This document shows, piece after piece, positions 1,067 to 42,581 of a stretch of DNA of 43,152 nucleotides. The stretch lies in IMG/VR virus record IMGVR_UViG_2778261177_000005. One strand, written 5' to 3'. Numbering within the stretch: position 1 is the stretch's first letter; each line of letters begins with the position of its first letter. Position numbers and translations under genes: made by a program. The notes below the pieces were generated by a model. The model ran no database searches. It was not told the DNA's origin and saw only the letters and a program-made list of their open reading frames with translations. The DNA is from a virus (Duplodnaviria; Heunggongvirae; Uroviricota; Caudoviricetes).

Positions 1067-1098
1067 TAAAAAGAGACCGAACACGATTCCTGTTTTCG
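1067..1098. repeat. attL: left copy of imperfect 32-bp direct repeat (taaaaagagaccgaacacgattcctgttttcg), host-derived remnant of the sdsR terminator
   Basis: Matches 42550..42581 with 3 mismatches (1073, 1082, 1094); identical 11-bp core acgattcctgt at 1083..1093. Confidence 0.7.
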
Positions 1099-1456
1099 TC
1101 AACAAACTACAAAATCTTTTAGAATTAATGTGTTAAATAAATTTCTGCTCATCTTTTAATCCCTAACACGTACCATTACATATTAATACATTCAATTAGT
1201 TACCATTTTTTTCGAGTTTTTTAGAGAAATTTTCGGGAATATTTCAGGTCAATCCATGCATACACAAGCAATTCCTGTATTGAATAATTCCGTAGCAATT
1301 ATGTAAAATCATCGCCGGCTGATTTTCATTCAAACTCGCGCTATCGAACGTCCATCAGCCAGCCGTGGCACGTTCTTGCATACGACGTGCTACGGTTTCA
1401 TTTATCTCCGACTGGAAACTTCTTATACAAAGTCGATACGCCAACATCATAGATGA

Positions 1457-1591
1457 TCGCTACCTTCAGGCGAGGAACTCCTGATGCAATATAATTTGTG
1501 GCTGGATTATCTGGACGCACTGGAACTGGTCGATACTTCCGGTGCGCCAGATATTGAATGGCCTACGCCTCCGGCAGTTCAGGCCAGATAA
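1457..1591 (+). pseudogene. 3' remnant of a second, inverted tail fibre assembly gene (tfa')
   Basis: Plus-strand frame without a proper 5' part encodes ...MQYNLWLDYLDALELVDTSGAPDIEWPTPPAVQAR*, clearly similar to the C-terminus of the intact Tfa on the other strand (LDYIDAVTATDTSTAPDVIWPELPEA); the two C-termini overlap convergently at 1563..1591. Confidence 0.55.
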
Positions 1592-1973
1592 CATCCGGTG
1601 CGGTGCTGGTATCTGTTGCCGTCACAGCGTCGATATAATCCAGCACAACGTTAAGTCGGGTAGTTTCTTCTTGCGTCAGTTTGCGCCCGGCCTGCAGCTT
1701 TAACTGAATCACGCTGATATTGGCCATTGCTGCGTCTATCAGCGACTGTTTTTTCTGTTCAGCGTCAGCTACCAGTTCATCATGAGAACGTTCCGGAGGG
1801 AGCGGCGCAGTAAATACCCCGTCTGAATACGCCCAGCCGACTCCGGGCTGCTCACTGATATCAGAAATATTAATGAGCTGCAGATTATCCGGCACAGTGA
1901 ATTCATCCTCGCCATCCCAGACAATGACATTCACAACCATCCCATTTTCAATAACTGCATATGACGCATTCAT
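1563..1973 (-). CDS. tfa: tail fibre assembly protein (Tfa / P2 gpG-like)
   Basis: ORF 1563..1997 starts with TTG; ATG at 1973 overlaps the tail fibre stop (TAATG); C-terminal DTSTAPD-x-WPE motif typical of Tfa proteins; directly downstream of the tail fibre gene. Confidence 0.8.
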   Translation of the reverse strand: MNASYAVIENGMVVNVIVWDGEDEFTVPDNLQLINISDISEQPGVGWAYSDGVFTAPLPPERSHDELVADAEQKKQSLIDAAMANISVIQLKLQAGRKLTQEETTRLNVVLDYIDAVTATDTSTAPDVIWPELPEA

Positions 1974-3040
1974 TATGCAAACTCCTCGATAATACAAATC
2001 CCTGCAGCGCCTTTCCCGCCCGTCATACTGGTTCCGCTATAACCGGCATCGTATGCACCACCGCCACCTGAACCATATGCCTTGCCGCTAACACCACCGC
2101 CAGCGCCTGCGCGTCCACCGCCACCCCAGTACGATGTTCCGCCTTCACCGCTGACGCCGATATTTCCGGACTGACCGTCGCCTCCACATCCACCAATGAT
2201 GTTTATATCGCCAGTACTCGGCACACCTCCGTTACCACCGTTTGTGTTTGTGACTCCTGACTTTCCGCCGCCTGCGCCACCAGGAGCAATTAACGATGCG
2301 AATAAGCTATTACCGCCATTGATGCCGTACGTCGCACTAACACCACCGGCCCCACCTGCGCCGATAGTGACTGGATAACTATTCTGTGTCGGGGTCATTA
2401 TTGAAATTATTGTTCCACCGGCCCCACCGCCAGCACCGAAAAACGTTTCATTATTGGATATAGCCTTGCAGCCGCCCCCTCCGCCACCGCCGCCCGTTAT
2501 TGTGACCCTGATCCGTTTTATTCCTGGCGTCGGGGTGTACGTACCTGATGACGTGAAAACCCGGGTATTCACCAAGCGTCCCACGTATCCGTTTGTAGCT
2601 CCCAAACCAAGATAATGAATAACCTCCTGTTTGCTTGTTTTAGCCAGAATATCCCGTCCAACATTAGTCAGGGTTGTCAGGCTGGCTGTATCATTCCCCG
2701 TAAAATACGGTAGTTTGTCTGCCGCAGTGGCAAGGCCTGCCAGTGCGGTCAGTGTGGCGTCAAGCGCCTGGAAATCCTTCCCCAAAGCCGCTTCCATTTT
2801 GGAGATAAACCCGTTCAGGTCACCATCATCAAGCACATCCAGCCCACTTTTATTAGCTGTGTACTGTGCAAGCGCTGCCGTAATAAAGCTGGCCTGTCGA
2901 ATGGCTTTGTTCACCTGCGCACTGGATGCTTTCCCTGCTGTAAATCCGGATAAAAGCGCAGGCAACGCTTCCCATTCCTCCTGCGACATAACATTGGCAT
3001 TTTTACCCGTTGCGAATGCTTTAAAGTCATTTTTTGCCAT
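1973..3040 (-). CDS. stf: side tail fibre protein (P2 gpH-like) with glycine-rich C-terminal half
   Basis: N-terminal region with LPYFTGNDTASLTTLTNVGRDILAK, typical of side tail fibres; Gly-rich C-terminus (GGGGGGGG, GAGGGAGG); start is ambiguous between the coupled ATG at 3040 and the ATG at 3058. Confidence 0.8.
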   Translation of the reverse strand: MAKNDFKAFATGKNANVMSQEEWEALPALLSGFTAGKASSAQVNKAIRQASFITAALAQYTANKSGLDVLDDGDLNGFISKMEAALGKDFQALDATLTALAGLATAADKLPYFTGNDTASLTTLTNVGRDILAKTSKQEVIHYLGLGATNGYVGRLVNTRVFTSSGTYTPTPGIKRIRVTITGGGGGGGGCKAISNNETFFGAGGGAGGTIISIMTPTQNSYPVTIGAGGAGGVSATYGINGGNSLFASLIAPGGAGGGKSGVTNTNGGNGGVPSTGDINIIGGCGGDGQSGNIGVSGEGGTSYWGGGGRAGAGGGVSGKAYGSGGGGAYDAGYSGTSMTGGKGAAGICIIEEFA

Positions 3041-3720
3041 CAGAGTAATACTCCCCATGCCCCTACATCAAAACCACTGATGAATTCGTTATCCATATCA
3101 AAACCAAAAAATTTTGAACCTTCCGATGGGGTTTCCACCGAAGGTGTTTCAATGCCACCCGCCCACACACCGGCGGCTTTTACTGTGAGATATCCCTGTT
3201 TAATTGCAGCAATTAACTCACGCGATACATCTGAAATATCAGTATCAGGAAAGACCCAGACCGATATCGTCATGTCCTGGTTATCGACTATCTGCATTCG
3301 CAGTCCGGATCCTGCTGTTGCAGCGTCAAGAATTGCCGGAAGCGAATCATTCCGTCCGTCCCAGTTATTAATCGCAATCTTCGCTTTAAGAATGACACGA
3401 TAAGTTTCATCGCTGAGATACATGTATCCTGAATCAGGATCATATGGCCCCTGCCATACCCCCTGATCATACCCAAGCCCGTCGGTATCCCAGCTGAAAT
3501 AGACACCTGAGATAAGCTGGCTGACAACACGGCTACGTCCGATCCACAATCCCAGAATGTCAAGTTGCACACCAACCGCAGAGTCAATATCAAATGCAGT
3601 AATCAGCCCTCTGGTGGCAGCCGCAACATCAATAAGCGGCCGGGTCATCAGATCAACATGTGCAAGAAATTTAGGTTTGGTGGCGTGGTAGTTTGTGATT
3701 AGTTCGGTGTATTTGCTCAT
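3040..3720 (-). CDS. baseplate/tail protein, P2 gpI-like (YmfQ/DUF2313-like)
   Basis: 226 aa; ATGA overlap with upstream gene; sits between the gpJ-like and tail fibre genes as in P2-type baseplate modules. Confidence 0.55.
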   Translation of the reverse strand: MSKYTELITNYHATKPKFLAHVDLMTRPLIDVAAATRGLITAFDIDSAVGVQLDILGLWIGRSRVVSQLISGVYFSWDTDGLGYDQGVWQGPYDPDSGYMYLSDETYRVILKAKIAINNWDGRNDSLPAILDAATAGSGLRMQIVDNQDMTISVWVFPDTDISDVSRELIAAIKQGYLTVKAAGVWAGGIETPSVETPSEGSKFFGFDMDNEFISGFDVGAWGVLL

Positions 3721-4916
3721 GACTCCACCGTTATAACGATATTTTCCGGGGTACAGGACGCAGATTCGTTGTATCTGATATCAATGTTTGATGACGACAA
3801 AGCCCCCGGGGATTTACCAATCGTCAGTTCCTGAATATCGTAATAGCGTGCATTCCCGCCACTCACCACGCCAAGATTCGCCGGTGAGTAAATGCGACTT
3901 AAAAGGACCGAATCACCAATCATCAGACTATTGATATAGTCGGAAATAGCCTGCTGGATCTGCTGCCCTATCTGTGAGGTATAACCCGTAAAAACTTTTA
4001 ATTTAATCCGGGCATAAACAGGCACATCACTGGAACGCGAGAATTTGATTACATGGGGATTGCCGTATTTATCCGGAACCGTAACGGATGTTGTACCGTG
4101 AGTGGCTGTCCCCTGGCCTTTATTCCCTCTGATAGCCTGAGCAATATCCGTCACATCACCACCATCCACAATTACAGCAACAGAGTGTGGCGGTAACCCG
4201 TTACCGTCCTCCGAACCAGTATCGTTTTCATAGAGTTTGTGGCGGGTTACACCGGCAACATTAGAAACAGCACCATCCAGTGCTTCAAATGGGGTTATTG
4301 ATGGCAACGCAACACTTTGCGACTGGCGGATACGTAACTCAGCATCAGTTTCTGCTGGAGTACCCACAGTAGCCGCAGCAGGATTGGTTACCGAAACCCA
4401 GCCACGGGTTGGCGTATTAATTTCAGTGATAGTTCCAGCCAGCGCCGCCACTGCACCACTGACGGAACATGTTGCGGTCACCATCACTGTACCATCCACG
4501 CCGACCACCACTGAAGCAGGCAAACGCCATATCACATTATTACTGTCTTTCACGCTGCCATTAATGATGGTTGTTCCGGCAGTTCCTGTAAGAAGCAAAT
4601 CAACCGTAGAGTTCGTCGCGCCTTTACGTGAAATACCATTTATTTTCACGTTACTGGTCAGTGCAGCCCCATAGCCGGTTGCCGGTGAAAAACAGTTGTA
4701 GACAGTTATCGCCGTATTATTGGCATCATGAATCGCCAGCGCCATCAGAGCCACCATCTGGCCGTCTTTACTGTCTGGTTCGAGGTAAGCATCACTGCCA
4801 TAAATCTGCTGAAAATAGCTAATCAGGGTGCTGAGTATCGTCTGATAATCAGGCGCACTGATCCCCTCCGCGGTTACCTTTGCAGATAAACCGAGAGAAT
4901 CAAGGTTCAGAGCCAT
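3717..4916 (-). CDS. baseplate J-like protein (P2 gpJ / Mu gp47-like)
   Basis: 399 aa; translationally coupled to flanking genes; family assigned from position and size. Confidence 0.6.
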   Translation of the reverse strand: MALNLDSLGLSAKVTAEGISAPDYQTILSTLISYFQQIYGSDAYLEPDSKDGQMVALMALAIHDANNTAITVYNCFSPATGYGAALTSNVKINGISRKGATNSTVDLLLTGTAGTTIINGSVKDSNNVIWRLPASVVVGVDGTVMVTATCSVSGAVAALAGTITEINTPTRGWVSVTNPAAATVGTPAETDAELRIRQSQSVALPSITPFEALDGAVSNVAGVTRHKLYENDTGSEDGNGLPPHSVAVIVDGGDVTDIAQAIRGNKGQGTATHGTTSVTVPDKYGNPHVIKFSRSSDVPVYARIKLKVFTGYTSQIGQQIQQAISDYINSLMIGDSVLLSRIYSPANLGVVSGGNARYYDIQELTIGKSPGALSSSNIDIRYNESASCTPENIVITVES

Positions 4917-5269
4917 TACGCCTCCGATGTAACAGTCGTTATTCCATAGAGAGTGTCGATTTCAGCGGAAAACATGACACGTCGGGTCGTGGTATCCACC
5001 GTCGTATTGAAAGAGAGGATTGATTTAACGCCCCGCGTTTCGAGGATGCGCTTACGGATCGCCAGGTTGTAGGTTTCCGGCTTCTGCTTACCGAGTACGG
5101 ACTGGATCCACGGAGTCCCCTCGGTGGTGTCGAGAAACCATTGTCCATACCACAATTCGAATCGCGTTTTTACCGCCTGCGCCACGGCCTCCGGTGAGTT
5201 AATCAGCCAGGTGTCATCACCGCTGCCAAAGGTGTAATCGCCATCGGCGTCTTCACGTCTGTATCGCAT
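4916..5269 (-). CDS. baseplate wedge protein, gpW/gp25-like
   Basis: 117 aa; overlapping start/stop with neighbours; between the gpV-like and gpJ-like genes. Confidence 0.55.
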   Translation of the reverse strand: MRYRREDADGDYTFGSGDDTWLINSPEAVAQAVKTRFELWYGQWFLDTTEGTPWIQSVLGKQKPETYNLAIRKRILETRGVKSILSFNTTVDTTTRRVMFSAEIDTLYGITTVTSEA

Positions 5270-6021
5270 CAGTTTACTCCGTCGGTATTGCCTCCACCGC
5301 GCTGAACACCACCATGAGTGTGCGTATCATCGATTGGCTTGCCGTTAGCCTTCACGCTACCCAAAAACTCAACAGCACCAGTGATTTTTGAAGCCACACC
5401 AGAAGCAACAGACCCCACCATGCCACCCATCCAGGTTAACAGGCCATGAATGGTTACTTTCTCAGAAAAATCAGCCAGAGGGGCAACCACATCAAGACCA
5501 CCCGGAGCGACAATTTTAATTTTCCGGGTATCAGGATTAAGCTCAAAATAGGTGCTGCCGTCGTCACTACGCAACTGTGTGGCACTGGTATTAATACCGC
5601 TAATCTTCCTAGCCTGCGACTGGGGACCGACAATACAAAACGCATCCGATAAATCATGCATTCTGTCATCGACCGGCTCCTGTATCCCGCCACTCTGCCA
5701 CCAGAAATCAATACAACGATCGGCAAAAATCACCAAACATTCATCACCGGCTTTAACTGGAAACGTTAGCGTACAGCCTCCGCCACGCGGGAATACCACT
5801 GGCACATCCACCAGCAATGGGTAATTTTTGGTAATGCGGTTGCCGTCGTTATCAATTTCAACGTAACGGATAGCAGGCTGTACAACCGCCGTCACCGCAT
5901 CAGGAGCGAATGACTGAACAATGCCAGGCAAGGCGACACGGATCTGGTTCTTTGTTGTTTCCCGTTCAGATTTAAATGTTTCGGCAAGGTCACCGCTGCG
6001 GGTCTGGTCAGATACTGCCAT
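5269..6021 (-). CDS. baseplate assembly/spike protein, gpV-like
   Basis: 250 aa; RBS GGAG 9 nt upstream of the ATG at 6021; first gene after the inserted island. Confidence 0.6.
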   Translation of the reverse strand: MAVSDQTRSGDLAETFKSERETTKNQIRVALPGIVQSFAPDAVTAVVQPAIRYVEIDNDGNRITKNYPLLVDVPVVFPRGGGCTLTFPVKAGDECLVIFADRCIDFWWQSGGIQEPVDDRMHDLSDAFCIVGPQSQARKISGINTSATQLRSDDGSTYFELNPDTRKIKIVAPGGLDVVAPLADFSEKVTIHGLLTWMGGMVGSVASGVASKITGAVEFLGSVKANGKPIDDTHTHGGVQRGGGNTDGVN

Positions 6022-6038
6022 TTAGTAGGCTCCAGAAA

Positions 6039-6062
6039 GCAAAAAACCCGCCAAGTGGCGGG
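6039..6062 (-). terminator. intrinsic terminator immediately 3' of the accessory gene pair
   Basis: Minus strand reads CCCGCC-ACTT-GGCGGG followed by UUUUUU; lies between the stop of 6086..6514 and the gpV-like RBS. Confidence 0.7.
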
Positions 6063-6085
6063 TTTGAATTTTGAGAAATTTCAGC

Positions 6086-6514
6086 TTATGCAGTTAACGA
6101 GTCATCACCAATCTTCAGTAATTGATTAACGATTGCATCGACCTCTTCCGCATCCAGAATTACACTTCTCGCGGTAATCCGGTTGATTTTCCGCTCAAGC
6201 TTGTAATCAGAATTAACACGTTGGGCATGCGTCATTTTCAGTTTAACGCCGATTTTCTTTACTGCGTTAACATCAACATCGTTAAGTGCAGCTGCCTCAC
6301 CACTACAAAAGGCCGTATAGACTCGCATGTGAACTCCACCTTTTAGTTTTTCACCATCTTGTGTAGCGGTCGGTACCAGATTGTTGGTGATCCGTAAGGC
6401 GGAATGGTACATACCATAGTATGCTCGGCTAATAGCATTTCTCGTCCACATCTCACCGTTTAGAGCCAGGGAATGCTTAGCCAATTCAAGAAAACAGGTA
6501 TGCTCAACCGACAT
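6086..6514 (-). CDS. HEPN-like helical domain protein (candidate RNase toxin / abortive-infection effector)
   Basis: 142 aa; N-terminal ...EMWTRNAISRAYYGMYHSALRI and C-terminal ...HAQRVNSDYKLER resemble the two conserved helices of classical HEPN domains as I recall them; TAATG coupling to the upstream gene; AT-richer than flanking tail genes by eye. Confidence 0.45.
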   Translation of the reverse strand: MSVEHTCFLELAKHSLALNGEMWTRNAISRAYYGMYHSALRITNNLVPTATQDGEKLKGGVHMRVYTAFCSGEAAALNDVDVNAVKKIGVKLKMTHAQRVNSDYKLERKINRITARSVILDAEEVDAIVNQLLKIGDDSLTA

Positions 6515-7245
6515 TAGAGTTCCCCGGCTTCAAAGCATCCGACGCATTCTGAATCCGCAAGCCCCGCAATAATAATCTCATCAGCCAAGGCATTATTCAT
6601 CTGCGAAAGAAGCACTGGATCGTCTGTTTTGACTTCAACGAACAGCGTATCAAGTTCTGACATTACATAAAAAGCATGAGCGCCAGCAAGACGAGCGCGG
6701 TACTTTTCTGCAACGTTCATCATGAGCCGCCCAATAGTTTTTAGCTCCTGAGCATGATCTTTTTGGGTATGCAGATAATTGAGCGTGTCATACCATTTGC
6801 CCATATCTTCAGGGCGCGGTACTTCCATTGCAGTTAGCATCGGCATCACCTTTTCAAGCAAATCGATATCAACCCAGTATGCAGAAATTGTAGCAACCTC
6901 AGCCAATATCGTTGGATTAAGTGAATCAGATGCTTTCTGAATCATCACATACTGGCGAGCATGCAAACCTAAGTTACGCAGCGCAATCGTATAGTTACAA
7001 AAAGAAACTGGATCGTTAGGCGCTATTCTCAACCCCCGCTCACAGAGTGAACATCCTTCATCTATTTCACCAAGAACAAGCTTAGCTAAGCCTTCAATTG
7101 ATAGCCCCTGATAACGTTCAGGTAGTTTCTTCGCTTCACGAATGATTCGATGGATTTCAAACTCACTCAGAAGGTTTTCACCCTTAGTTAATGAAGGAGT
7201 CAGAAGATCTAACAGTTCTCCTGATTTTGGCTGCGCTAAACTCAT
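6514..7245 (-). CDS. hypothetical protein, predicted all-helical (TPR-like?), partner of the HEPN-like protein
   Basis: 243 aa; RBS AGGA about 10 nt upstream of ATG; preceded by a 149-bp gap; no motif I recognise (no nucleotidyltransferase GS...DxD motif). Confidence 0.6.
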   Translation of the reverse strand: MSLAQPKSGELLDLLTPSLTKGENLLSEFEIHRIIREAKKLPERYQGLSIEGLAKLVLGEIDEGCSLCERGLRIAPNDPVSFCNYTIALRNLGLHARQYVMIQKASDSLNPTILAEVATISAYWVDIDLLEKVMPMLTAMEVPRPEDMGKWYDTLNYLHTQKDHAQELKTIGRLMMNVAEKYRARLAGAHAFYVMSELDTLFVEVKTDDPVLLSQMNNALADEIIIAGLADSECVGCFEAGEL

Positions 7246-7394
7246 GTTTTAGTTATTCCTGGCTTTAATGAAGTAGCATATCGATGGCAATCCACCATCA
7301 AAAAGTCAGTGCAGTGTAATCGCTCGTCTCAAAAAACAACAGTTTTTAGAGCACATTTTGTTGTTTTTCAGGCGTTACGAATTTCAGGTTACCT

Positions 7395-7736
7395 TCACCC
7401 AGCCACTTTTTTACAAGGGAAAGATCCGATGATTTTCGGCGCATCCATGCTGTTCTGCAGAAGCTGGACATTCAGGAATCGCGTTTCGGTACCAGGGCGA
7501 CGAATGTATTCAAAGCCGTAGTTGTTACCGTCTTTGGCAGGCATAAGCCCCATGTCTACTTTCAAACCATTGGTACCCAGTTCGGTGATTTTTTGAGAGG
7601 TAACTCTTTCACCGTTGATAGTCGATAACTCGCCCTGGTTTGCAACCATAGTGTAGCCACCGCATTTAACCGTGAAGCCATCCGCCCACGCGCTGCACGC
7701 AGAAAAGACAGCTAACAGAAAAATAATACCCCTCAT
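7395..7736 (-). CDS. small secreted/periplasmic protein (signal peptide, 2 Cys in mature part)
   Basis: 113 aa; N-terminus MRGIIFLLAVFSACSAWA-DG is a typical Sec signal peptide with AxA site; RBS AAGGGGA; start 3 nt after the gpD-like stop. Confidence 0.6.
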   Translation of the reverse strand: MRGIIFLLAVFSACSAWADGFTVKCGGYTMVANQGELSTINGERVTSQKITELGTNGLKVDMGLMPAKDGNNYGFEYIRRPGTETRFLNVQLLQNSMDAPKIIGSFPCKKVAG

Positions 7737-7739
7737 TGC

Positions 7740-24993: not shown

Positions 24994-25575
24994 TTAAAGC
25001 TGCATCAGCCTTTCCACCAGTTTATCTCTGCGAACAACAAACCAACCATTGGCTCTCGCCAGTTCCAGCCATGACTCAAGGGAAATAACAATATCATCAT
25101 CCCGCAACTGAATTGTGGAAACAGTGACACCGCCTCGCTGATAACAGAGAACTCGCGTGTCGTAACTTTTCTGGCATGAAGCTGGCGCTGACGGATCCTT
25201 TTGTCTGAAATAGCAGTCTTCCAGCTTTTCGAACACATCCCACGCCTGATCGGTTTCGAGCATTTTGGCATGACGGGCTGCTCCGCGTTCTGTCCAGAGG
25301 ATGAGGGAGCGGGCTTTCGGGGAAATTTGTAACCCTCTTAAAGATGGTTGCAAATTTTGTGAGTAGTTTAAAGCTACCCGCAATTCTTTAAGGTCATTAC
25401 CAACAACTTTGAAAAAGTGTTTCCCTTCAACGAAGCGTACTTTGTTCTCATGATGATTCTGGCGAATGCGCACCGGCTCAGTGCCGTAAAGCTGCGCCAA
25501 AAGTTCGGTGGTAATAACAGGAATCTGGTTATGGGTGATCGGGGAGAGAGTTTCAACAGAAATTTGAGTTGTCAT
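24994..25575 (-). CDS. ORF6N-domain (antirepressor-like) protein, first gene downstream of PR'/tR'
   Basis: 193 aa; N-terminal ...IPVITTELLAQLYGTE...KHFFKVVGNDLKEL...LWTERGAARHAKMLETDQAWDVFEKLEDCYF resembles the ORF6N domain as I recall it; RBS GAGGG. Confidence 0.5.
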   Translation of the reverse strand: MTTQISVETLSPITHNQIPVITTELLAQLYGTEPVRIRQNHHENKVRFVEGKHFFKVVGNDLKELRVALNYSQNLQPSLRGLQISPKARSLILWTERGAARHAKMLETDQAWDVFEKLEDCYFRQKDPSAPASCQKSYDTRVLCYQRGGVTVSTIQLRDDDIVISLESWLELARANGWFVVRRDKLVERLMQL

Positions 25576-25732
25576 AATGACGCCCTCTGGTGGTTTCTTA
25601 ATAACTCACCACCGACGACGCCAATCATCTGGTGGTGAACTGTGCAGGGTTGGCGTAACCGGGAAACCGACCGGCGCGGATCTCTCCGCCCCCACACAGC
25701 CCACCATAATTCAGATGTGCGCGTGCATGCGA

Positions 25733-25758
25733 CAATAAAAAACACGCTCGCGGCGTGT
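25733..25758 (-). terminator. tR'-like terminator of the short late leader transcript
   Basis: Minus strand ACACGC-CGCGA-GCGUGU followed by UUUUUUAUU, about 55-80 nt downstream of the PR'-like promoter. Confidence 0.6.
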
Positions 25759-25819
25759 ATCTGTCGCGGTCTCTATCCAGGACGCCAATCCCGACGCCAG
25801 ATTTTGCTGGCGCGTGAGG

Positions 25820-25849
25820 AATATAGCCCCGGATAACAGATTGAGTCAA
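25820..25849 (-). promoter_or_regulatory. PR'-like late promoter (sigma70 -35 TTGACT / 18 bp / -10 TATATT)
   Basis: Minus strand ttgactcaatctgttatccggggctatatt; the -35 overlaps the Q-like stop codon, the classic lambdoid position. Confidence 0.65.
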
Positions 25850-27845: not shown

Positions 27846-28001
27846 TTACTCCTCAGGTTCGTAAGCTGTGAAGACAGCGACCTCCGTCTGGCCGGTTCGG
27901 ATTCGTACCTCGCAGAGGTCTTTCCTCGTTACCAGTGCCGTCACTATGACGGTAATACAGATGACGATCAGGGCGACTAACATCGCCTTTTGCTGCTTCA
28001 T
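27846..28001 (-). CDS. hok: Hok/Gef-family type I toxin (HokD/RelF-like)
   Basis: 51 aa MKQQKAMLVALIVICITVIVTALVTRKDLCEVRIRTGQTEVAVFTAYEPEE; single TM helix then conserved Cys; RBS AAGGAG; in-frame upstream extension in ORF 27846..28058 in the mok position. Confidence 0.85.
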   Translation of the reverse strand: MKQQKAMLVALIVICITVIVTALVTRKDLCEVRIRTGQTEVAVFTAYEPEE

Positions 28002-28292
28002 AGCCTGCTTCTCCTTGCCTTTCGGCACGTAAGAGGCTAACCTAGATTTGCCGTTCATAGATTGAGCCTCAGATTAATGTTAAGCGTCTTGCAGGACGCG
28101 TAATGTTAACTGGGGCTCTTCTCTATCTGCCTTTTGGTGTTCATGCCCGAGGCAGATAGCCTCAAGCACCCGCAGCAATTTTACTTAACTCCCCTTTTCA
28201 CGCAAACCGTTTTTATCCCCAGCGGCAAATCGAATACACCACCAGCGCCACCGCCATCGCAATTCCTACCGTTGTGAATGCTTCAGGCCAGG

Positions 28293-32400: not shown

Positions 32401-33189
32401 TTACCCCCTGAAGCCTGGCGGGATCGCACTGTCCGGCAACGAGACGGTGTTAACCTGTCGGAGCAACGTCTCAGGCCGAACACCTTTCGGCGCGAACAGG
32501 CCCTGGTATTCATTGGCGATGCTGTGTCGAATCACCTGCTCAGGTGTAAAACCCTGCTGACGGAATTTTTCCAGTTCCCGTATCGCCCCGTTAGCGCCCT
32601 GCTCCGTTCGAATCGGTTTTCGCAATGCCTGTCTGAACCGGACCCACTCATGCCAGAGTGTTTCCGGCAACCAATCGGGCAGCTCAATAGCCTCCGGCTC
32701 GAATTTTTTAGACGCTCGTTTTTGGCGAGGGGGATTTAGGGGGAGATCAGTATTTAGATCTTCCTCTTCCTCTTCCTCTGGTAGCGCTTTTTGATCCGTT
32801 TGTGTAACGCCGGCAGCGTTACCTTTTCGTTTCAGTTCACGTATTTTTGTAACTCGCTCGTTTGTAACCGCCCGTTTTTTAGAGCTTTTTCCGTTATGGC
32901 GTTCAAAGTTAGGTAGAGAAAGCCCAACGTCATTTTCGACCAGCCATCCAACCTGAATTAACGCATCAGCAAAACCAGCCATAAAAGTGATGCGATCTAT
33001 TGCACTTTTTGTAACGCCGCGAGCGTTACAATCTGCATTACCGTCTATCATTTGTTGATCCGCCCATGCCCAGAAGCGAATAACCTTCCCTAATGCGGCA
33101 TCTGGATCAATATTCAGAATCTCAGCAAGCCTGAATATTTCCGGCTTATCCGGCGTAATAACCTCGAGCTTTATCCAGTTTGAAGCCAT
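32401..33189 (-). CDS. replication initiation/replisome organiser protein (O-like, YdaU/DUF1376-like)
   Basis: 262 aa; RBS AAGGTGA; poly-Glu linker (EEEEEED); position upstream of the DnaC-like gene. Confidence 0.55.
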   Translation of the reverse strand: MASNWIKLEVITPDKPEIFRLAEILNIDPDAALGKVIRFWAWADQQMIDGNADCNARGVTKSAIDRITFMAGFADALIQVGWLVENDVGLSLPNFERHNGKSSKKRAVTNERVTKIRELKRKGNAAGVTQTDQKALPEEEEEEDLNTDLPLNPPRQKRASKKFEPEAIELPDWLPETLWHEWVRFRQALRKPIRTEQGANGAIRELEKFRQQGFTPEQVIRHSIANEYQGLFAPKGVRPETLLRQVNTVSLPDSAIPPGFRG

Positions 33190-33221
33190 TTGTTTTCACC
33201 TTGTAACGCTCGCAGCGTTAC
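32803..33221. repeat. three copies of a 19-bp palindrome GTAACGC-N5-GCGTTAC (32803..32821, 33011..33029, 33203..33221)
   Basis: Read directly: gtaacgccggcagcgttac, gtaacgccgcgagcgttac, gtaacgctcgcagcgttac; two inside the O-like gene, one just upstream of its start; about 200-bp spacing. Confidence 0.7.
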
Positions 33222-34527: not shown

Positions 34528-34569
34528 AACACATTTCGTGTTGACACAAGAAAACACATTGTGTTTAAT
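34528..34569 (+). promoter_or_regulatory. PL-like early promoter with two operator palindromes
   Basis: -35 TTGACA (34541..34546), 17 bp, -10 TTTAAT (34564..34569); palindromes aacac-atttc-gtgtt (34528..34542, overlapping -35) and aaacaca-t-tgtgttt (34552..34566). Confidence 0.65.
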
Positions 34570-34743
34570 AAGCATATCCAAACAACGCCCCACCAGAGAA
34601 CGGCAGGACAATACCTCGAGTTATCCAGCCACTGAACAGGGCTAAGTAGCCAGCCTGAGGCATACGAACATGACGGCAGTTGTTGATTGATACAAAGCGC
34701 AGTAGATAAAACGTTCCGCCACCCGGCGTTAAGGGGAAAAAAG

Positions 34744-34962: not shown

Positions 34963-35122
34963 GTGAATCGGCGCTTTTTTTAGCATCACGTTCATTGAGT
35001 AGTGACAAAAACTCATTCTCAGCATTCTCGATTTCCGAGAAAAATTCTTGATGAGTTGTTTCTCGCTGCGATCTGATGCTGAAAGCTAAAGCAAGTAGCC
35101 AGGCTTTGTCTTTATTATCCAT
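34928..35122 (-). CDS. small hypothetical protein, convergent with 34744..34962
   Basis: 64 aa; weak RBS AAGG; overlaps the 3' end of the plus-strand ORF by 35 nt; one of the pair may be spurious. Confidence 0.3.
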   Translation of the reverse strand: MDNKDKAWLLALAFSIRSQRETTHQEFFSEIENAENEFLSLLNERDAKKSADSLKAWAKLGSSK

Positions 35123-35517
35123 CGGAATACCTTATTACTGGTTGTGTGAGAACTCCAGTATACCACCGAGCCTGAAGTGGTAAAAAGACAGGCGCACAAC
35201 ACGAAGGCGCATTTCCGGTATTCATAAAGAGTCGGTCTTGTCTGTTAAATTTAAATGGTGGGAGTGCGCCTCCGGTTGTAAATAACGACATTGCTATGTG
35301 TAGTCTTTGGCGGCATAAGTTCTACTCCGTGGCTGCCCTGCCACCCCTTTTTAAAGTGAATTTTGTGATGCGGTGAATGCGGCTAAGCGCACGCGGCACA
35401 GTTAAAAGCATCAGTGTTATGGGTGGATTATCCGGCGTTAATTGTTAACTGGTTAACGTCACCTGGAGGCACCAGGCACCGCATCGACAAAATTCATTTG
35501 TAAAAATGGAGATAATT

Positions 35518-35739
35518 ATGATTGCTCATCACTTCGGAACTGATGAAATACCACGTCAGTGTGTGACCCCTGGCGATTATGTTCTTCATGAAGGTCGGAC
35601 ATATATCGCCTCGGCAAACAATATTAAAAAGCGAAAACTTTATATTCGTAGCCTGACTACAAAAACATGCATTTCTGACTGCATGATTAGAGTCTTCCTC
35701 GGTCGTGATGGTTTACCTGTAAAGGCGGAGTCATGGTAA
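35518..35739 (+). CDS. KilR-like small protein (putative cell-division inhibitor)
   Basis: ORF 35506..35739; ATG at 35518 with RBS GGAG; 73 aa, the length of Rac KilR; Rac-like gene order (kilR-ydaE-racC-recE-recT). Confidence 0.45.
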
Positions 35740-35912
35740 TGACTAAGAAAATAAAATGTGCTTATCACCTTTGCAATAAAGAAATTGAAGAAAGCAAAAT
35801 CATTACAAGACCACTTCATTTCATGCGTGGAGTTATACCAACGACGGAAATGAAAAAATATTGTAGTGAAATCTGTGCCGAAAAAGACCAGATGGCACAC
35901 GAACTTTAATTA
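35739..35912 (+). CDS. YdaE-like small zinc-binding protein
   Basis: 57-aa ORF not in the supplied track (below 60 aa), translated by hand; TAATG coupling to the KilR-like gene; CAYHLC...CSEIC Cys pairs. Confidence 0.4.
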
Positions 35913-35983
35913 ACTGACTATCCGAAACTGAATTTATGCCAGCAATGGCAGGGATTCGCTCAACCTTAATTAAGGAGAAAAAC

Positions 35984-36229
35984 ATGATTACCAGTTATGA
36001 AGCCACTGTTGTTACTACTGATGACATTGTTCACGAAGTTACCCTGGAAGGAAAGCGTATTGGCTACGTGATTAAGACAGAAAATAAAGAAACCCCATTC
36101 ACTGTGGTTGATATCGACGGTCCATCAGGCAACGTTAAAACACTTAACGATGGTGTTAAAAAAATGTGTCTGGTGCACATAGGAAAGAATCTGCCCGCAG
36201 AAAAAAAGCCGAATTTCTGGCAACTCTGA
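35984..36229 (+). CDS. small hypothetical protein (RacC position)
   Basis: ORF 35936..36229; ATG at 35984 has strong RBS AAGGAG; 81 aa. Confidence 0.4.
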   Translation: MITSYEATVVTTDDIVHEVTLEGKRIGYVIKTENKETPFTVVDIDGPSGNVKTLNDGVKKMCLVHIGKNLPAEKKPNFWQL

Positions 36230-36357
36230 TTGCAATGAAATTAAAAGGTGAAATCTGAAAAAAAGAAAGCCTGCACACTGTGCAGGCCTGAGTGAAGAAC
36301 CTGGGACATTTATTCATCACTCGCATTAATTTTAATCTGAGTTGAGGTTAAAAAACA

Positions 36358-39300
36358 ATGAGCACCGATAAACAAGTTTACCCACTGTATTACGAAGCAA
36401 AAAATGACAAAGTAAGAAAACGTCTCGGTATTAAAGGCGGTTTCTACTGGGCTGAAGCGAAAAAATTATCCATTGCCATCTCCCGTGGTGCTGTTGCGAT
36501 TGACGATGCTGGCTACGATGAAGATGACTTTAAAAAACCTGTTCGCGTCAATTTGCCCGTTGTTGATGACCTTCCACCAGAAGGCGTATTTGATACGGAA
36601 TTCTGCAACCGTTACGAAAAAGGCGGGGAAGATGGCATCACAATGGTATTTATCGCGCCCTCATCCTCTGCGCAGGACAAACCAGCCAGCACTGACAATA
36701 CCAATGTTAATGGCGAAGACATGACGGAGATTGAGGAGAATATGCTACTCCCGATTTCCGGTCAGGAGCTGCCCATTCGCTGGCTTGCTCAACACGGCAG
36801 CGAAAAACCGGTAACGCACGTTTCACGCGACGAACTACAGGCATTACACATTGCACGAGCTGAAGAACTACCAGCTGTTACTGCCCTGGCTGTTTCCCAC
36901 AAAACCAGCCTGCTCGACCCGCTGGAAATTCGCGATCTCCACAAACTGGTGCGTGATACTGACAGAGTTTTCCCTAATCCAGGCAATTCAAGCCTGGGGC
37001 TGATGACTGCTTTTTTCGAAGCATACCTGGACGCAGACTACACCGATCGCGGTCTGCTGACAAAAGAGTGGATGAAAGGAAATCGTGTTTCATGCATCAC
37101 GCGCACGGCTTCCGGCGCTAATGCTGGCGGCGGGAACCTCACCGATCGCGGCGAAGGTTTCGTTCACGATCTGACGTCACTGGCGCGCGACGTAGCGACT
37201 GGCGTACTGGCTCGTTCAATGGACGTGGACATTTATAACCTTCATCCGGCACACGCTAAACGTGTCGAGGAAATTATCGCTGAAAATAAACCGCCCTTTT
37301 CTGTTTTCCGCGACAAATTCATCACCATGCCTGGCGGGCTGGATTATTCCCGCGCCATCGTGGTTGCGTCCGTAAAAGAAGCACCAATTGGGATCGAGGT
37401 TATCCCCGCACACGTCACTGAATATCTTAACAAAGTTCTGACTGAAACTGATCATGCCAACCCTGATCCAGAAATCGTGGATATTGCCTGCGGTCGTTCC
37501 TCTGCCCCGATGCCGCAGCGTGTAACAGAAGAAGAAAAACAGGATGATGAAGAAAAACTGCAACCATCTTGCGCAATGGCAGATGAACAGGCAACGGCTG
37601 AAACAGTGGAACCGGATGCAACTGAACATCATCAGGACACGCAGCCGCTGGATGCTCAGTCACAGGTAAATTCTGTTGATGCGAAATATCAGAAACTGCG
37701 GGCAGAACTCTATGAAGCCCGGAAAAACATTCCGCCCAAAAATCCTGTCGATGCAGACAAATTACTGGCTGCCTCTCGCGGAGAATTTGTTGAAGGGATT
37801 AGCGACCCGAATGATCCGAAATGGGTTAAGGGGATCCAGACCCGCGATTCTGTGTACCAGAATCAGCCAGAAACGGAACAGAACGACCCAAATACGCAAC
37901 AAAACGAGCCAGAAACGAAACAGCCTGAGCCAGTAGTGCAACAACAGGAAACGGAGAAAGTTTGCACCGCCTGCGGTAAGGCTGGCGGCGGCAACTGTCC
38001 TGACTGTGGCGCGGTGATGGGCGACGCAACGTATCAGAAAACCTTTAATGAAGAAAATCAGAATGAATATCAGGAAAAAGGTCTGGAGGAAATGGAAGGT
38101 GCTGAACATCCGCACAAGGAGAACGCTGGCAGCAATCCGCATTGCGATTGCAGTGATGAAGCTGGTGAAACGACAGCACCTGTAGTAACTGAAATCATGT
38201 GGCCGTCATATTTCGAGCCTGGCCGCTATGAAAACCTCCCGAACGAGGTTTATCACTCCGCCAACGGAATAAGCAGCACAATGCTGAAGGATGCCCGCAT
38301 CAGCCTGATGTATTACCACGGACGGCACATTGCCGGAACTATTCCGGGCGAGGAAAGTGATGCATTGCTGCGTGGGCGGATTATTCACAGTTATGTTCTG
38401 GAAACGGATAAATTCGCTGATGAGTATGCCATTCCGGTACCGGTTCCTGAATATGTGGTTACTACTTCTAACGAACTGATCGCCATCATTAAAAAACACA
38501 ATGCCAGTCTGCCAGCACTGATGACACCAGAGCAGATGAAAGAGTGGATCGAAAGCTACAACAGCACTCTTATACAGCCACTGTCGGTAAGTGCCGGGGC
38601 CGAAGAAACAGGCATCCTTTACGGTTCGCTTCCGGAGGAATTCCGGCGTATTCCTGAGGGGGAAAAACACACAGCATCAGCAATGAAAGCCTGTATTAAA
38701 GAATACAACGCAAGCCTCCCTCCTCTGCTGAAAGCCAGTGGAACACGAGAGCAGCTCCTGGAGCAAATTGAAACTGTAGATCCAGAACTGGCAAAAAAAG
38801 AACGTGCTAAATCTTTGCCTTACAACATCAGTGGCACAAAAGAGCAATTAACCGAAATCGCCCGGAAAATTCGCCCGGAACTGGTAACACTGGAGGACTG
38901 GCAAAAACGCCAGCAAGAAGAACACGCCGGGAAAACGTTTATCAGTCCGGATATGTATGAACAGGCAAAAAATATTCACGCAGCACTGCAAAACAATACT
39001 GATGCAGCAAGGCTACTCAACCACCCGGATCGCAAATCTGAAATCAGCTATTTCGGGTTTGATGAAGAAACCGGGCTGGAAATCAGGGTCCGTCCTGATA
39101 TCGAAATCCGGCTGCCATACGAAAGCATTTGCGCCGACGTGAAGTCAGTCAGCCTCGGTTATGTGCGACAGGAACGACTGAAAGATCGCCTGCACCGTGA
39201 AATTATTGAACGTGATTATCACCTCAGCGCAGCAATGTATTGCGATGTGGCAAACCTGGACAAATTTTTCTGGATCTTCGTCAACAAAGATGCTGGCTAT

Positions 39301-39486
39301 CACTGGGTGGCCGTCGTGGAAGCCTCGCAGGAACTCCTGGAACTTGGTCGACAGGAATATCGCCGGACACTACGACAGATAAACGAAGCTCTGGAGACAA
39401 ACAACTGGCCAGCACCGATTACCGAAAGTTATACCGACGAATTAAACGACTTTGATCTTCGTCGTCTTGAAGCACTGAGCATCTGA
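36358..39486 (+). CDS. exodeoxyribonuclease VIII-like recombination exonuclease (RecE-like), enlarged
   Basis: 1042 aa; central region (...[40 protein letters not shown]...) resembles Rac RecE as I recall it; zinc-ribbon [16 protein letters not shown]; divergent N- and C-terminal parts. Confidence 0.7.
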
Positions 39487-39497
39487 GGAAGGACACA

Positions 39498-40550
39498 ATG
39501 AACGAATTAACTCAACAAGAAAATATTAACTCTAATGTTGCGGTTTTCAGCCCTCAGTCCCTGGCTGCAATTCAGACATTTTCCCAGGTAATGGCTTCCG
39601 GCATGGCTACTGTACCGGAACACCTCCGGGGAAATCCATCAGACTGCATGGCCATCACCATGCAGGCGATGCAGTGGCAAATGAACCCTTACGCAGTAGC
39701 TCAGAAAACTTTCGTTGTGAATGGTGTGCTCGGATATGAAGCGCAACTGGTTAATGCCGTAATCAGTACTCGTGGGCCGCTAACCGGGCGTATTGAATAT
39801 GACTGGTTCGGGCCGTGGGAAAAAATTATCGGGAAATTTGAAATCAGGAAGAACGACAAGGGGAAAGAATATCGTGTACCTGGCTGGAAGCTGGCCGATG
39901 AAAACGGGATCGGAGTTCGCGTCCAGGCAACACTACGCGGAGAGAGCAAGCCACGCGTACTGGAGTTACTTCTGGCGCAGGCCAGAACACGTAACTCAAC
40001 GTTATGGGCCGATGATCCTCGCCAGCAGCTTGCCTATCTGGCACTGAAACGCTGGGCGCGCCTTTATTGCCCTGAAGTGATTCTTGGAGTGTACACCCGG
40101 GACGAACTGGACGAACCACAGGAAAAAATCATTAATCCGGTTCAGGAATATAAAAATACATCCGCCTGCCGTGCGGAACGTGAAACAACAATTATTGAGC
40201 AGGATGCCGGGGAAAACTGGATCAGTGCTTTCCGTGAACGTATTGAGCAGGCACAAAGCACCGGAGAAACAACAGCACTTCGCCAGGAAGTGGAAGATCA
40301 TAAAAATACACTTGGCGCTCTCTACACAGAACTTAAAGGAAAAGTGGTTCAGCGTCATCACCGTCTCAATGCTATTGCCCGTATTGAGAAGATGATAAAT
40401 GACCTGCCTTCATCAGGTGATCCAGAAGCAGAACTAAAATTTATTGCTCTGGAAAATACGCTGAATGCTGCACGACCACATCTGGGAGAATTATATGAGG
40501 CGTATAAAACGACACTGACAGATATGAAACCAGAATATATCGGCTCCTGA
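39498..40550 (+). CDS. single-strand annealing recombinase (RecT-like partner of the RecE-like exonuclease)
   Basis: 350 aa; RBS GAGGAAGGA; immediately downstream of the exonuclease gene; family assigned by position. Confidence 0.5.
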   Translation: MNELTQQENINSNVAVFSPQSLAAIQTFSQVMASGMATVPEHLRGNPSDCMAITMQAMQWQMNPYAVAQKTFVVNGVLGYEAQLVNAVISTRGPLTGRIEYDWFGPWEKIIGKFEIRKNDKGKEYRVPGWKLADENGIGVRVQATLRGESKPRVLELLLAQARTRNSTLWADDPRQQLAYLALKRWARLYCPEVILGVYTRDELDEPQEKIINPVQEYKNTSACRAERETTIIEQDAGENWISAFRERIEQAQSTGETTALRQEVEDHKNTLGALYTELKGKVVQRHHRLNAIARIEKMINDLPSSGDPEAELKFIALENTLNAARPHLGELYEAYKTTLTDMKPEYIGS

Positions 40551-40613
40551 TATTTACTATGGCGGTGTAGCCTCACCGCCATAACAAAACTTTATTTTAT
40601 GAGAGAAAAGACA

Positions 40614-40808
40614 ATGCGGTATGAAAAAGTCAAACCATGTCCGTTTTGTGGTTGTCCATCAGTAACGGTGAAAGCCATTTCAGGATATTATCGCGCAAAG
40701 TGTAACGGATGCGAATCCCGAACCGGCTATAGTGGAAGTGAAAAAGAAGCACTCGAAAGATGGAATAAACGAACTACTGGAAATAATAATGGAGGTGTTC
40801 ATGTATAA
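40614..40808 (+). CDS. Lar-family restriction alleviation protein (RalR-like)
   Basis: ORF 40599..40808; ATG at 40614 gives 64 aa with CPFCG...CNGC zinc-ribbon; position after recT as in Rac. Confidence 0.55.
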   Translation: MRYEKVKPCPFCGCPSVTVKAISGYYRAKCNGCESRTGYSGSEKEALERWNKRTTGNNNGGVHV

Positions 40809-40989
40809 AATTACTGCCACTATTGAAAAGGAAGGTGGCACTCCTACTAACTGGACAAGATATTCAAAATCTAAATTAACGAAATCAGAATGCGAAAAAA
40901 TGCTCTCAGGGAAAAAAGAAGCAGGCGTGTCCAGAGAGCAGAAAGTAAAGCTGATAAATTTTAATTGCGAGAAACTTCTGTCCTCGTGA
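40801..40989 (+). CDS. small hypothetical protein
   Basis: ORF 40732..40989; ATG at 40801 has RBS GGAGG; 62 aa. Confidence 0.4.
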   Translation: MYKITATIEKEGGTPTNWTRYSKSKLTKSECEKMLSGKKEAGVSREQKVKLINFNCEKLLSS

Positions 40990-41095
40990 GCTGCATTATA
41001 TACAAATTAGAACTTCATAGCTGATTATTAAAAATCAACCACACCCGCCAGTATTCTGTATATTTACTGGCGGTCATATCGTAAGAGGTATGGCA

Positions 41096-41377
41096 ATGAA
41101 TCTTGTGACACTCAAAACGTGGGGAAAACTCAGATATCCGGATAACCCACCATCAATATCAACGCTGAGACGATGGGCAAGGAATGGAAACATTTATCCT
41201 GCACCTGAACTACACGGGAGGAGTTACAGGGTGGTTCCGGAGGCTTTCTATATCAACCCAAATAAGGTTGATACCGATATAACACACCATCAGCCTAATG
41301 GGCGACAAGGGAGAGACAGTCCGTTACTGGAGAAATTAAAACATGCAGCGGAAAAAATACGATCCCAATTTGCCTAA
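41096..41377 (+). CDS. xis: excisionase (Xis)
   Basis: ORF 41090..41377; second ATG (41096) has better spacing to RBS AAGAGGT; 93 aa; immediately upstream of and overlapping int. Confidence 0.7.
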   Translation: MNLVTLKTWGKLRYPDNPPSISTLRRWARNGNIYPAPELHGRSYRVVPEAFYINPNKVDTDITHHQPNGRQGRDSPLLEKLKHAAEKIRSQFA

Positions 41378-42419
41378 AAACTTAACATATCGAAGGAGGG
41401 ACAAAGCATATTACTGGCGCAACCCTCTGACGAAAGAAGAATTTACACTAGGTAAAATTTCAAGAAGAGATGCAGTAGCGCAGGCAATTGAAGCAAATCA
41501 TTATATATACAAAAACTACTCTCCTGCTGCCTTAATTGAAAAGCTTAAAGGGTTCGACTCATTTACTATGGCAGACTGGATTGAACGTTACAAAACGATT
41601 CTTATAAGGAGAAAAGTGTCCAGAAATACTTATAAAATCCGGGTAAATCAACTGGAGACAATAAAAGAAAAATTGGGAGAGATTTTACTGACAGAAATAA
41701 CCACTCGCCATATTGCCGAATTTCTTGATTTGTGGATTGAAGGAGGGAAAAACACAATGGCAGGATCAATGCGTTCTGTGTTGTCTGATATGTTTCGCGA
41801 GGCCATTGTTGAAGGACGTATATCTCAAAATCCAGTAACGCCAACAAGAGCACCGAAAATAGTAGTTACAAGAGAACGACTGAAACTAAAGACATACAAC
41901 TGCATCAGGGAGGCAGCAGATCAACTTCCGGCATGGTTCCCATTAGCTATGGATTTAGCCCTTGTAACAGGACAACGTCGCGAAGACATAACGAATATGC
42001 GGTTCAGTGATATTTATGATGATCGTCTCCACATCAGGCAAATTAAGACAGGAATGATGATTGCTATCCCCCTGTCACTCAGCCTTCCTGTCGCTGGTCT
42101 ACGGCTTGGTACAGTAGTTGAACGGTGCCGCCTGGTAAGCCGGGGAGATTATCTAATCAGTGCCGGGATTAGAAAAAACAGCCCTGACGGCAGCATTCAC
42201 CCGGATGGCCTGACAAAAAAATTTGTCGCAGCCAGAAAATTAACAGGTATCCAGTTCAGTGAAAACCCACCAACTTTTCACGAGATCAGAAGCCTGGCTG
42301 GACGATTGTACAAAGAAACATGTGGAGAAGAATTTGCTCAGCGTCTACTTGGCCACACATCGGAGAAGACAACAAAAATGTATCTTGATGAGAGAGAAAA
42401 AACGTACTTACTGCTCTGA
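41343..42419 (+). CDS. int: tyrosine integrase (lambda Int family)
   Basis: 358 aa; C-terminal catalytic region with ...[11 protein letters not shown]... and ...[13 protein letters not shown]...; xis-int overlap; adjacent to attR. Confidence 0.9.
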
Positions 42420-42549
42420 TTTTAACGTAAATGGATTGTTAAATGTATTTTGGTTGTGATATAACCAAAAAAGACCGGAATACAGAAATTCGAGTAAATT
42501 TCGGGGAATTTCGGGGAGACGCTTGCAACTGATTGATTTTAAATACAAT

Positions 42550-42581
42550 TAAAAAAAGACCGAATACGATTCCTGTATTCG
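42550..42581. repeat. attR: right copy of the 32-bp direct repeat (taaaaaaagaccgaatacgattcctgtattcgg)
   Basis: Matches 1067..1098 with 3 mismatches; forms the 3' terminator hairpin of sdsR. Confidence 0.7.

Follow-up and report, generated by a model that had tools for sequence, protein, structure and literature searches.

SdsR (RyeB) is among the most abundant stationary-phase small RNAs (sRNAs), controlling mutS, tolC, porins and yhcB, with the antisense RNA RyeA (SraC) as its antagonist. The sdsR gene, also called ryeB, is listed as a known phage target by Bobay et al. (PMC3603311). Phages, islands and phage remnants at ryeB/ryeA were described for Salmonella in 2008 (Balbontin et al., J Bacteriol 190:4075, as cited in PMC7380047 and PMC3333887), and the Salmonella phage phiW104 is reported to integrate in the last 23 bp of ryeB and to modify the 5′ part of ryeA, with ryeA going down and ryeB up (PMC7380047). 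In Escherichia coli O26:H11 strain 11368, prophage ECO26_P14 is recorded as 'inserted at ryeB' (PMC7649339), and 'RyeB' serves as a target label in the Islander/TIGER island catalogues, for example in Cfr111.52.RyeB (PMC10111431). The present analysis concerns a stretch of 43,152 nucleotides (nt), IMG/VR virus record IMGVR_UViG_2778261177_000005, here called the window, in which a preliminary description had proposed a prophage integrated into the 3′ end of sdsR. The results support, with a probability of roughly 0.85, the presence of a complete-looking temperate phage of 41.5 kb integrated in the last bases of sdsR, with predicted consequences for SdsR, RyeA and the nearby gene pphA. Integration of this kind is already published and fairly common, and this prophage is an ordinary case of it. 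Three aspects may be new: a conserved outward promoter in the phage arm, an integrase origin of the K-12 ryeA promoter, and a cut pphA operon.

A single pair of flanking direct repeats was identified in a repeat search of the window. These repeats, as the left and right attachment sites (attL and attR), delimit the prophage and its integration genes.

1062-1098: attL repeat copy, with the core at 1083-1093 (repeat search, shuffles)
1094-42565: prophage body, 41,472 bp (PGAP annotation of the PEC148 prophage, Pfam, PHROG)
41090-41377, + strand: excisionase gene, xis (PF07825, E 6.5e-14)
41343-42419, + strand: tyrosine integrase gene, int, encoding 358 amino acids (PF00589, PF22022, PF09003) and overlapped by xis
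42545-42581: attR repeat copy, with the core at 42566-42576 (repeat search, shuffles)

The two 37-nt copies are 86 % identical, matching at 32/37 positions against a peak of 24/37 in 60 shuffles of both 500-nt junction regions, and their similarity ceases at both ends of the 37-mer. The longest identical stretch within the pair is the exact 11-bp core, ACGATTCCTGT, at 1083-1093 and 42566-42576, which is bounded by the mismatches C/T (1082/42565) and T/A (1094/42577). The 32-bp imperfect repeats of the preliminary description fall within this pair, the span 1067-1098 matching at 29 of 32 positions, and the 11-bp core is the one described there.

Both the empty chromosomal site (attB) and the phage site (attP) were recovered elsewhere. 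A predicted empty site, built by joining window positions 600-1093 to 42577-43072, occurs as one unbroken stretch in 5190 of the 5426 complete E. coli genomes; the best match, in STEC299, is 99.9 % identical over 990 nt. There are 5662 placements in the 5426 genomes, hence the site is split in approximately 236 of them, and the int/sdsR junction seen here is present in 228 (~4 %). An alignment with an uninterrupted pphA-sdsR-yebY locus had been suggested as a check; in K-12 and STEC299 the empty sites read ...AAAAAGAGACCGAAC-ACGATTCCTGT-ATTCGGTCC..., which is the sequence left of attL, the core, and the sequence right of attR, base for base. The reciprocal attP junction, attR-left plus core plus attL-right, is unbroken in phage record PP818812.1 (91 % over 597 nt) and contiguous in three IMG/VR contigs, L127 (95.7 % over 601 nt), L128 and L129, making four phage or viral records in all. 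The preliminary description had itself raised the alternative that the repeats belong to a larger unrelated duplication. Short two-copy repeats are indeed common, with at least 60 families in the window, and a chance match or a piece of a duplication would leave the intervening DNA not site-specifically integrated. This reading is already refuted, and its probability is close to nil: the match far exceeds the shuffles, it ends with the 37-mer, and attB and attP were each recovered independently in other genomes.

The genes int and xis adjoin attR. The integrase has the lambda arm-binding domain (PF09003, E 2e-6), a core-binding domain and the catalytic domain (PF00589, E 9e-17), and its translation contains the R..HxxR..H..Y signature (GQRRED, HEIR, GHTS, KMYLD). 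It is 41 % identical to the HK022 Int and 98 % identical to the Int of PP818812.1. Strand exchange by this lambda-family tyrosine integrase would take place inside the 11 bp of identity, ACGATTCCTGT. The two arms of attP are as follows.

1094-1394: P′ arm (int-distal), joined directly to the P arm in PP818812.1 and L127; an arm-type-like motif, ATTTTCGGGA, occupies 1229-1238
42420-42565: P arm (int-proximal), a block kept across integrase clades

Besides two exact ATTTCGGGG repeats (42498-42506 and 42508-42516), the P arm has a similar AAATTCGAG at 42486-42494 and, at 42538-42526 on the − strand, WATCAANNNNTTR, which fits the IHF consensus exactly. This tandem pair makes up all of the exact copies of ATTTCGGGG in the window; at one mismatch there are 11 matches, against 11.2 expected. 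The arm repeats and the IHF consensus are candidate protein-binding sites. PP818812.1 is deposited as 'Actinobacillus phage vB_Apl-pPE4', and its host label looks doubtful, because it encodes the integrase seen here (98 % amino acid identity) and its attP matches the E. coli/enterobacterial sdsR terminator.

At its left end the window begins with yebW, followed by pphA. The sdsR locus stands at the other end, with one displaced fragment beside the left attachment site.

42551-42650, − strand: sdsR (ryeB), full length (RF00111, 118.1 bits, model positions 1-100, threshold 38)
42665-42660, − strand: sigma-S −10 box of sdsR, TATTCT (primer PM_SdsRF, PMC6610125)
42811-43152, − strand: yebY, the conserved right-hand neighbour of sdsR (annotation)
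1064-1084, − strand: displaced 3′ half of the old sdsR terminator, GUGUUCGGUCUCUUUUU, within the attL copy; its folding is lost (z 0.47 against shuffles)

The core at 42566-42576 lies 15-25 nt from the Rfam-defined SdsR 3′ end (42551) and within the Rfam match to RyeA (42547-42691). A terminator scan identified the hybrid terminator GGACCGAATAC-AGGAATC-GTATTCGGTCT, followed by TTTTTTT, at 42585-42557. The loop of the SdsR terminator and the adjoining stem bases are the crossover core. After integration, phage DNA makes up what lies past the core in the 3′ arm (42565-42557) as well as the U-tract (42556-42550), contributing 8/10 bases of the 3′ arm and the entire U-tract. Two earlier claims, that the right repeat copy forms the sdsR terminator and that the phage arm replaces the native 3′ half of it, agree with this structure and with the full-model Rfam match to SdsR (42650-42551, − strand). 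The attP of the phage brings its own sdsR 3′ end of approximately 30 bp, with the promoter, the body and the 5′ stem of SdsR kept by the host; the promoter region of sdsR is the same as before integration.

The native RNA ends in GGACCGAAUAC-AGGAAUC-GUGUUCGGUCU-CUUUUUAUC and the hybrid RNA in GGACCGAAUAC-AGGAAUC-GUAUUCGGUCU-UUUUUUAAU. A U.G pair and a UCUCUUUUU tail had been attributed to the left copy. Both are found in the empty sites of K-12 and STEC299 and in primer SdsRtMF (PMC6610125), but the pairing makes no difference to the predicted stability: the native and hybrid stems are both at −15.8 kcal/mol (ViennaRNA), A-U versus G.U regardless. A stronger stem was therefore rejected as the meaning of the phage copy, the predicted energies being identical, and the U-tract alone differs, with seven uninterrupted U in the hybrid versus UCUUUUU in the native tail. 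The Rfam scores of both hybrid genes exceed those of K-12 (RyeA, 180 vs 175 bits; SdsR, 118.1 vs 114.4 bits). A − strand hairpin with a U-run at 42495-42466 was considered as a back-up terminator and is weak (−8.5 kcal/mol, z −1.4). Among species representatives, the base left of the core is T, giving a perfect stem, in 88 sdsR loci and C, giving the U.G wobble, in 27. E. coli, Klebsiella, Raoultella and several Pantoea have C, and the phage copy has T, as most loci do. In an E. coli lysogen, L099, attR shows C together with an additional A.

RyeA is affected differently. In K-12 the ryeA −10 box lies in GTGTGT-TATGGT-TGACTATAAAG, and changing TATGGT to CTCGAG (primer PM_RyeAF) abolishes RyeA, an RNA of 261-272 nt (Choi et al., PMC6610125). 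In the window the parts of this gene, together with a candidate promoter of the phage arm, are distributed as follows.

1014-1022, + strand: K-12-type sigma-70 ryeA promoter, extended −10 TGtTATGGT with the hexamer at 1017-1022 (PM_RyeAF), now pointing into the left end of the prophage
1026-1093, + strand: stranded 5′ part of a K-12-type RyeA, ~65 nt; a start at ~1026-1030 is inferred from the −10 position and the length of RyeA
42457-42465, + strand: extended −10 TGaTATAAC in the phage arm, a candidate promoter facing outward, whose hexamer ends 101 nt ahead of the core
42577-42783, + strand: 3′ part of RyeA, ~207 nt, antisense to all of SdsR (RF00101 at 42547-42691)

The split of ryeA put forward in the preliminary description is seen here, with the −10 box on the attL side and the RyeA body and terminator on the attR side. 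No continuous unit runs from the TATGGT promoter to the RyeA terminator, as 41.5 kb of prophage lie between them. The terminator itself is a hairpin at 42741-42780 followed by a U-run (−20 kcal/mol, z −4.6). The split is invisible to Rfam annotation because the 145-nt RyeA model begins just 19 nt left of the core, and it matches in full (180 bits, model positions 1-145, + strand). The old ryeA promoter faces the AT-rich left phage arm and the tail-fibre end, and in the chimera that it would transcribe into the phage (1029-1160) the structure is not beyond that of shuffles (z 0.5), with no predicted terminator.

Other sdsR loci were surveyed in one genome per species, scanned for the core plus the right flank. 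At least 115 enterobacterial species representatives have an identical 19-mer target. Of the 95 loci with enough upstream sequence to be informative, ten have a full-length homologue of this Int (47-98 % identity) 95-150 nt from the core, and five more contain integrase remnants. Repeated ATTTCGG-type motifs, the IHF consensus and a TGnTATAA box stand at fixed positions in these arms. A second integrase clade, made up of Enterobacter, Lelliottia and Leclercia loci (L036, L043, L013, L114 and L086), ends in ...K K Y L D A R G A E Y V M V stop; in its TATGTTATGGTTTAG the TATGGT ends 97 nt short of the core. Homology extends between the arms of both clades (score 54 vs a null maximum of 27).

The TGnTATAA box is kept across arms whose integrases are 58-94 % identical. 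It occurs 100-102 nt before the core in eight other int-linked or remnant loci, two of them with integrases just 58-60 % identical, at 85 nt in a Salmonella diarizonae remnant, and at 90 nt in another remnant locus (L006). In the integrase clade of this prophage the TGaTATAAC box is non-coding, and, measured from the homologous arm block, its position differs by no more than 4 nt from that of the TGtTATGGT in the other clade. No + strand terminator is predicted from int to the core. A substitute outward promoter at this box, or read-through from int, would make a chimeric antisense RNA ending at the RyeA terminator. Starting near 42472, such a RyeA would be ~310 nt long, ~40 nt longer than before, and would still cover the whole of SdsR. 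Convergent transcription from the displaced ryeA promoter would no longer interfere with sdsR, and by analogy the net effect may resemble that in Salmonella phiW104 lysogens, with RyeA lower and SdsR higher. TTGCAA-N15-TACAAT (42523-42549) was also tried as a replacement ryeA promoter and was dropped, having a 15-nt spacer and a TTGCAA within the conserved exact IHF consensus. Directly after the candidate −10 box, at 42467-42485, the int-proximal arm has a second, partial copy of the left arm of the att site (AAAAAAGACCGGAATACAG vs AAAAAAAGACCGAATACGA), which is kept in related arms of both integrase clades.

A further consequence, absent from the preliminary description, is predicted for the gene on the far side of the prophage.

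277-933, − strand: pphA, NinI-like Ser/Thr phosphatase (PGAP annotation of the homologous locus; phrog_246)

Transcription of pphA in K-12 is attributed mainly to the sdsR promoter ('primarily responsible'), from which it continues past the sdsR terminator; this read-through is damped by transcription of ryeA, through interference with sdsR (PMC6610125). In the window pphA is 41.5 kb from the sdsR promoter, so the insertion is predicted to cut the sdsR-to-pphA read-through operon. The gene pphA would lose its main promoter, hence its RpoS-linked expression. The phage late/tail operon (− strand, 22920 to 1563) is now upstream of it, no − strand terminator is predicted from the tail genes to pphA (900-1700), and pphA might be co-expressed with the late genes on induction.

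Several observations weigh against this account of a complete-looking phage that substitutes part of the regulation at its target. The stability of the terminator stem is unchanged in the folding model, so any effect on SdsR through termination alone may be small. A sigma-70 consensus scan calls no + strand promoter in 42300-42566, TGaTATAAC ends in C rather than T, and its conservation could reflect a protein-binding site of the intasome instead of a promoter. If the phage arm had no functional promoter, ryeA would simply be decapitated, with the mapped K-12 promoter beyond the other end of the prophage, no antisense transcription over sdsR save for rare read-through from int, and the SdsR 'toxin' left without its RyeA 'antitoxin'. 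Such a simple loss is a tentative and rather unlikely explanation. It does not account for an extended −10-like box at a fixed distance from the core, non-coding here and present in arms with integrases of such different identity, and Salmonella phiW104 lysogens are reported to have a modified and reduced RyeA, not an absent one (PMC7380047). As the position of TGnTATAA is conserved and its counterpart in the other clade is the ryeA −10 of K-12, which has been verified by experiment, an outward promoter borne by the phage is likely, and on this sequence evidence a swap of promoters is more likely than simple loss of RyeA in the lysogen.

Some decay of the prophage must also be considered, given that a Pin-type invertase at its left end has been cut to 34 codons. 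If excision were no longer possible, the rearrangement of the sRNA locus would be permanent in the lineage. The invertible tail-fibre segment has collapsed, and over long stretches the identity to database prophages does not exceed ~97-98 %, which is consistent with such a locked-in state. Both att sites, int and xis are intact, however, a full set of replication, lysis, head and tail open reading frames (ORFs) is present, and the prophage is collinear with that of PEC148 and with the deposited phages vB_EcoM-606R2/611R5. A defective prophage is therefore improbable, more so than the simple loss of RyeA, and a complete-looking phage with a promoter swap at ryeA is the preferred reading.

The survey also bears on the uninterrupted locus of E. 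coli, where the 'native' left flank resembles the end of an integrase gene.

960-1023, + strand: probable fossil of the integrase 3′ end of the second clade, from the catalytic Tyr region to the last codons (local alignment)

This spacer between pphA and the att site aligns at 69 % identity to the last ~64 nt of the second-clade int. Local scores against the int 3′ ends of L036, L043 and L013 are 36-37, compared with shuffle maxima of 22-26 (300 shuffles), and 5552 real windows used as a control peak at 31, with none at 34 or above. An nhmmer profile of the int 3′ end scores just 10.7-12.5 bits in K-12 and STEC299 (for a search space of 10 Mb, E 0.29-1); this is persuasive only because these are its sole matches in 23 kb and are in the predicted place and strand, and the case for a fossil is made mainly by the alignment scores. 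The alignment stops precisely with TGTTATGGTT, the extended −10 box of ryeA in K-12. This box is 61 nt from the core in E. coli, E. ruysiae and E. whittamii, 36 nt nearer than in intact elements. In PMC3333887 the Salmonella/Shigella sraC −10 is placed 'about 35 bp further upstream', with SraC ~35 nt longer, and the 36-nt offset agrees with this shift. A full integrase went undetected at 100 of the species-representative sdsR loci, and at 80 of these the left flank shows significant similarity to the int-3′/arm sequences of occupied loci; those lacking such similarity are mostly from the Erwiniaceae, Pectobacteriaceae and Yersiniaceae. The pphA-sdsR spacer resembles the int 3′ end in all Escherichia examined.

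The gene pphA encodes a NinI-like phage phosphatase (phrog_246, E 4.9e-87); its start is 27 nt from the relic, and it is directed away from the relic, the orientation that nin genes have relative to int. The PHROG match of yebW is weak evidence of phage origin, as the host gene yebY also matches a PHROG, because prophage predictions overshoot into the flanks. No far-side att relic was found in the 9 kb left of sdsR in K-12, allowing up to eight mismatches in 35 nt.

Taken as a whole, these comparisons suggest, at about even odds, that RyeA/SraC is a by-product of mobile elements rather than an ancestral partner of SdsR. These odds are for the following steps jointly. Each integrase module targeting sdsR would carry an outward extended −10 box where int ends or shortly beyond, at ~100 nt from the core, and once integrated its promoter would transcribe antisense across sdsR. 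The K-12 ryeA promoter, TGtTATGGT, would be the fossilised last codons of int (…Y V M V stop), the arm having lost 36 nt. The last cargo of an ancient lambdoid prophage would be pphA, perhaps with yebW, and the sdsR-to-pphA read-through operon would have arisen by internal deletion. Each new integration would then swap one phage-derived RyeA 5′ end and promoter for another.

The remainder of the prophage is mosaic. Its early region is lambdoid/Rac-like and its tail morphogenesis is of the contractile type, with late and tail genes on the − strand (1563-22920). Head, contractile-tail, baseplate, tail-fibre and lysis genes, a Q-like antiterminator, and O-like and DnaC-like replication genes are present, along with cII-like and cro/cI-like helix-turn-helix genes, recE/recT, ralR/RalA, hok/sok, xis and int. 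The closest prophage is that of PEC148, which is collinear and at the same site. The best prophage matches have 96-98 % identity over 86-93 % of each half, and more than 80 % of either half is shared by only 23-41 genomes. The left half is 97 % identical over 73 % to phages vB_EcoM-606R2/611R5, and SEN34 is also related.

At the left end, a Pin/Gin-type DNA invertase gene is reduced to its final 34 codons (1401-1502, − strand), which have 88 % identity to pinE in the prophage of PEC148, and an adjacent 268 bp (1481-1748) match PEC148 in inverted orientation. Together these indicate that an invertible tail-fibre cassette has collapsed and that the invertase has been lost. At 25628-25826 (− strand), Rfam identifies a C4 antisense RNA, isrK, and c4 a1/b1 target sites upstream of an ORF with an ORF6N domain (24994-25575, − strand); going by its sequence features, this locus is a P1/Gifsy-1-type antirepressor module controlled by antisense RNA inside the prophage. 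There are two type I toxin-antitoxin pairs. One is hok/sok (27996-28171, − strand), and the other consists of RalR (Lar family; 40599-40808, + strand) and its antitoxin sRNA RalA (40807-40985, − strand; 222.8 bits), a pair already known from Rac. A palindromic 24-mer (TTTGTGTAACGCCGGCAGCGTTAC and variants) occurs three times (32799-32822, 33006-33029 and 33198-33221), inside or just after the replication-initiator gene (32401-33189, − strand), and these copies are probably origin iterons.

The presence of a prophage at this site in ~4 % of complete E. coli genomes predicts strain-to-strain differences in the balance of SdsR and RyeA and in pphA expression. These differences are missed by ordinary annotation, in which Rfam calls both RNAs intact. 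If the integrase-fossil origin of the ryeA promoter is true, it explains the variable sraC/ryeA promoters across enterobacteria vs the invariant sdsR, and a bidirectional pair proposed as an sRNA toxin-antitoxin system would consist of a host RNA and a phage-derived antisense.

The prophage shares its target with phages of the phiW104 type, namely the last ~23 bp of ryeB/sdsR, internal to ryeA, and likewise ryeB is restored and the 5′ part of ryeA is replaced. The arm of the S. diarizonae remnant aligns with the arm in the window. The host here is E. coli, however, the prophage, a relative of vB_EcoM-606R2 and SEN34, is a mosaic with a contractile tail, and the shift in expression, which was measured for phiW104, is inferred here. 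The site in this sRNA gene is also that of ECO26_P14 and the 'RyeB' islands; those sources record the site alone, without the terminator, RyeA or pphA, and the cargo differs. With the lambda and HK022 integrases this system shares, as judged from sequence, the domain set, the xis/int overlap and, as candidate binding sites, the repeated arm motifs and the IHF consensus beside the core. It differs from lambda in its core and target, an sRNA terminator vs the gal-bio intergenic site, and in the candidate outward promoter downstream of int. Like P4, P22, CP4-57 (ssrA) and P2-like phages (ryeE/cyaR; PMC3603311), which enter the 3′ ends of tRNA, tmRNA or other sRNA genes, it has its crossover in the hairpin-forming 3′ end of a conserved RNA gene and carries a copy of the displaced segment that would keep the RNA functional. 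In contrast to these, its target locus is transcribed on both strands, such that restoring SdsR rewrites RyeA and is predicted to cut the pphA operon.

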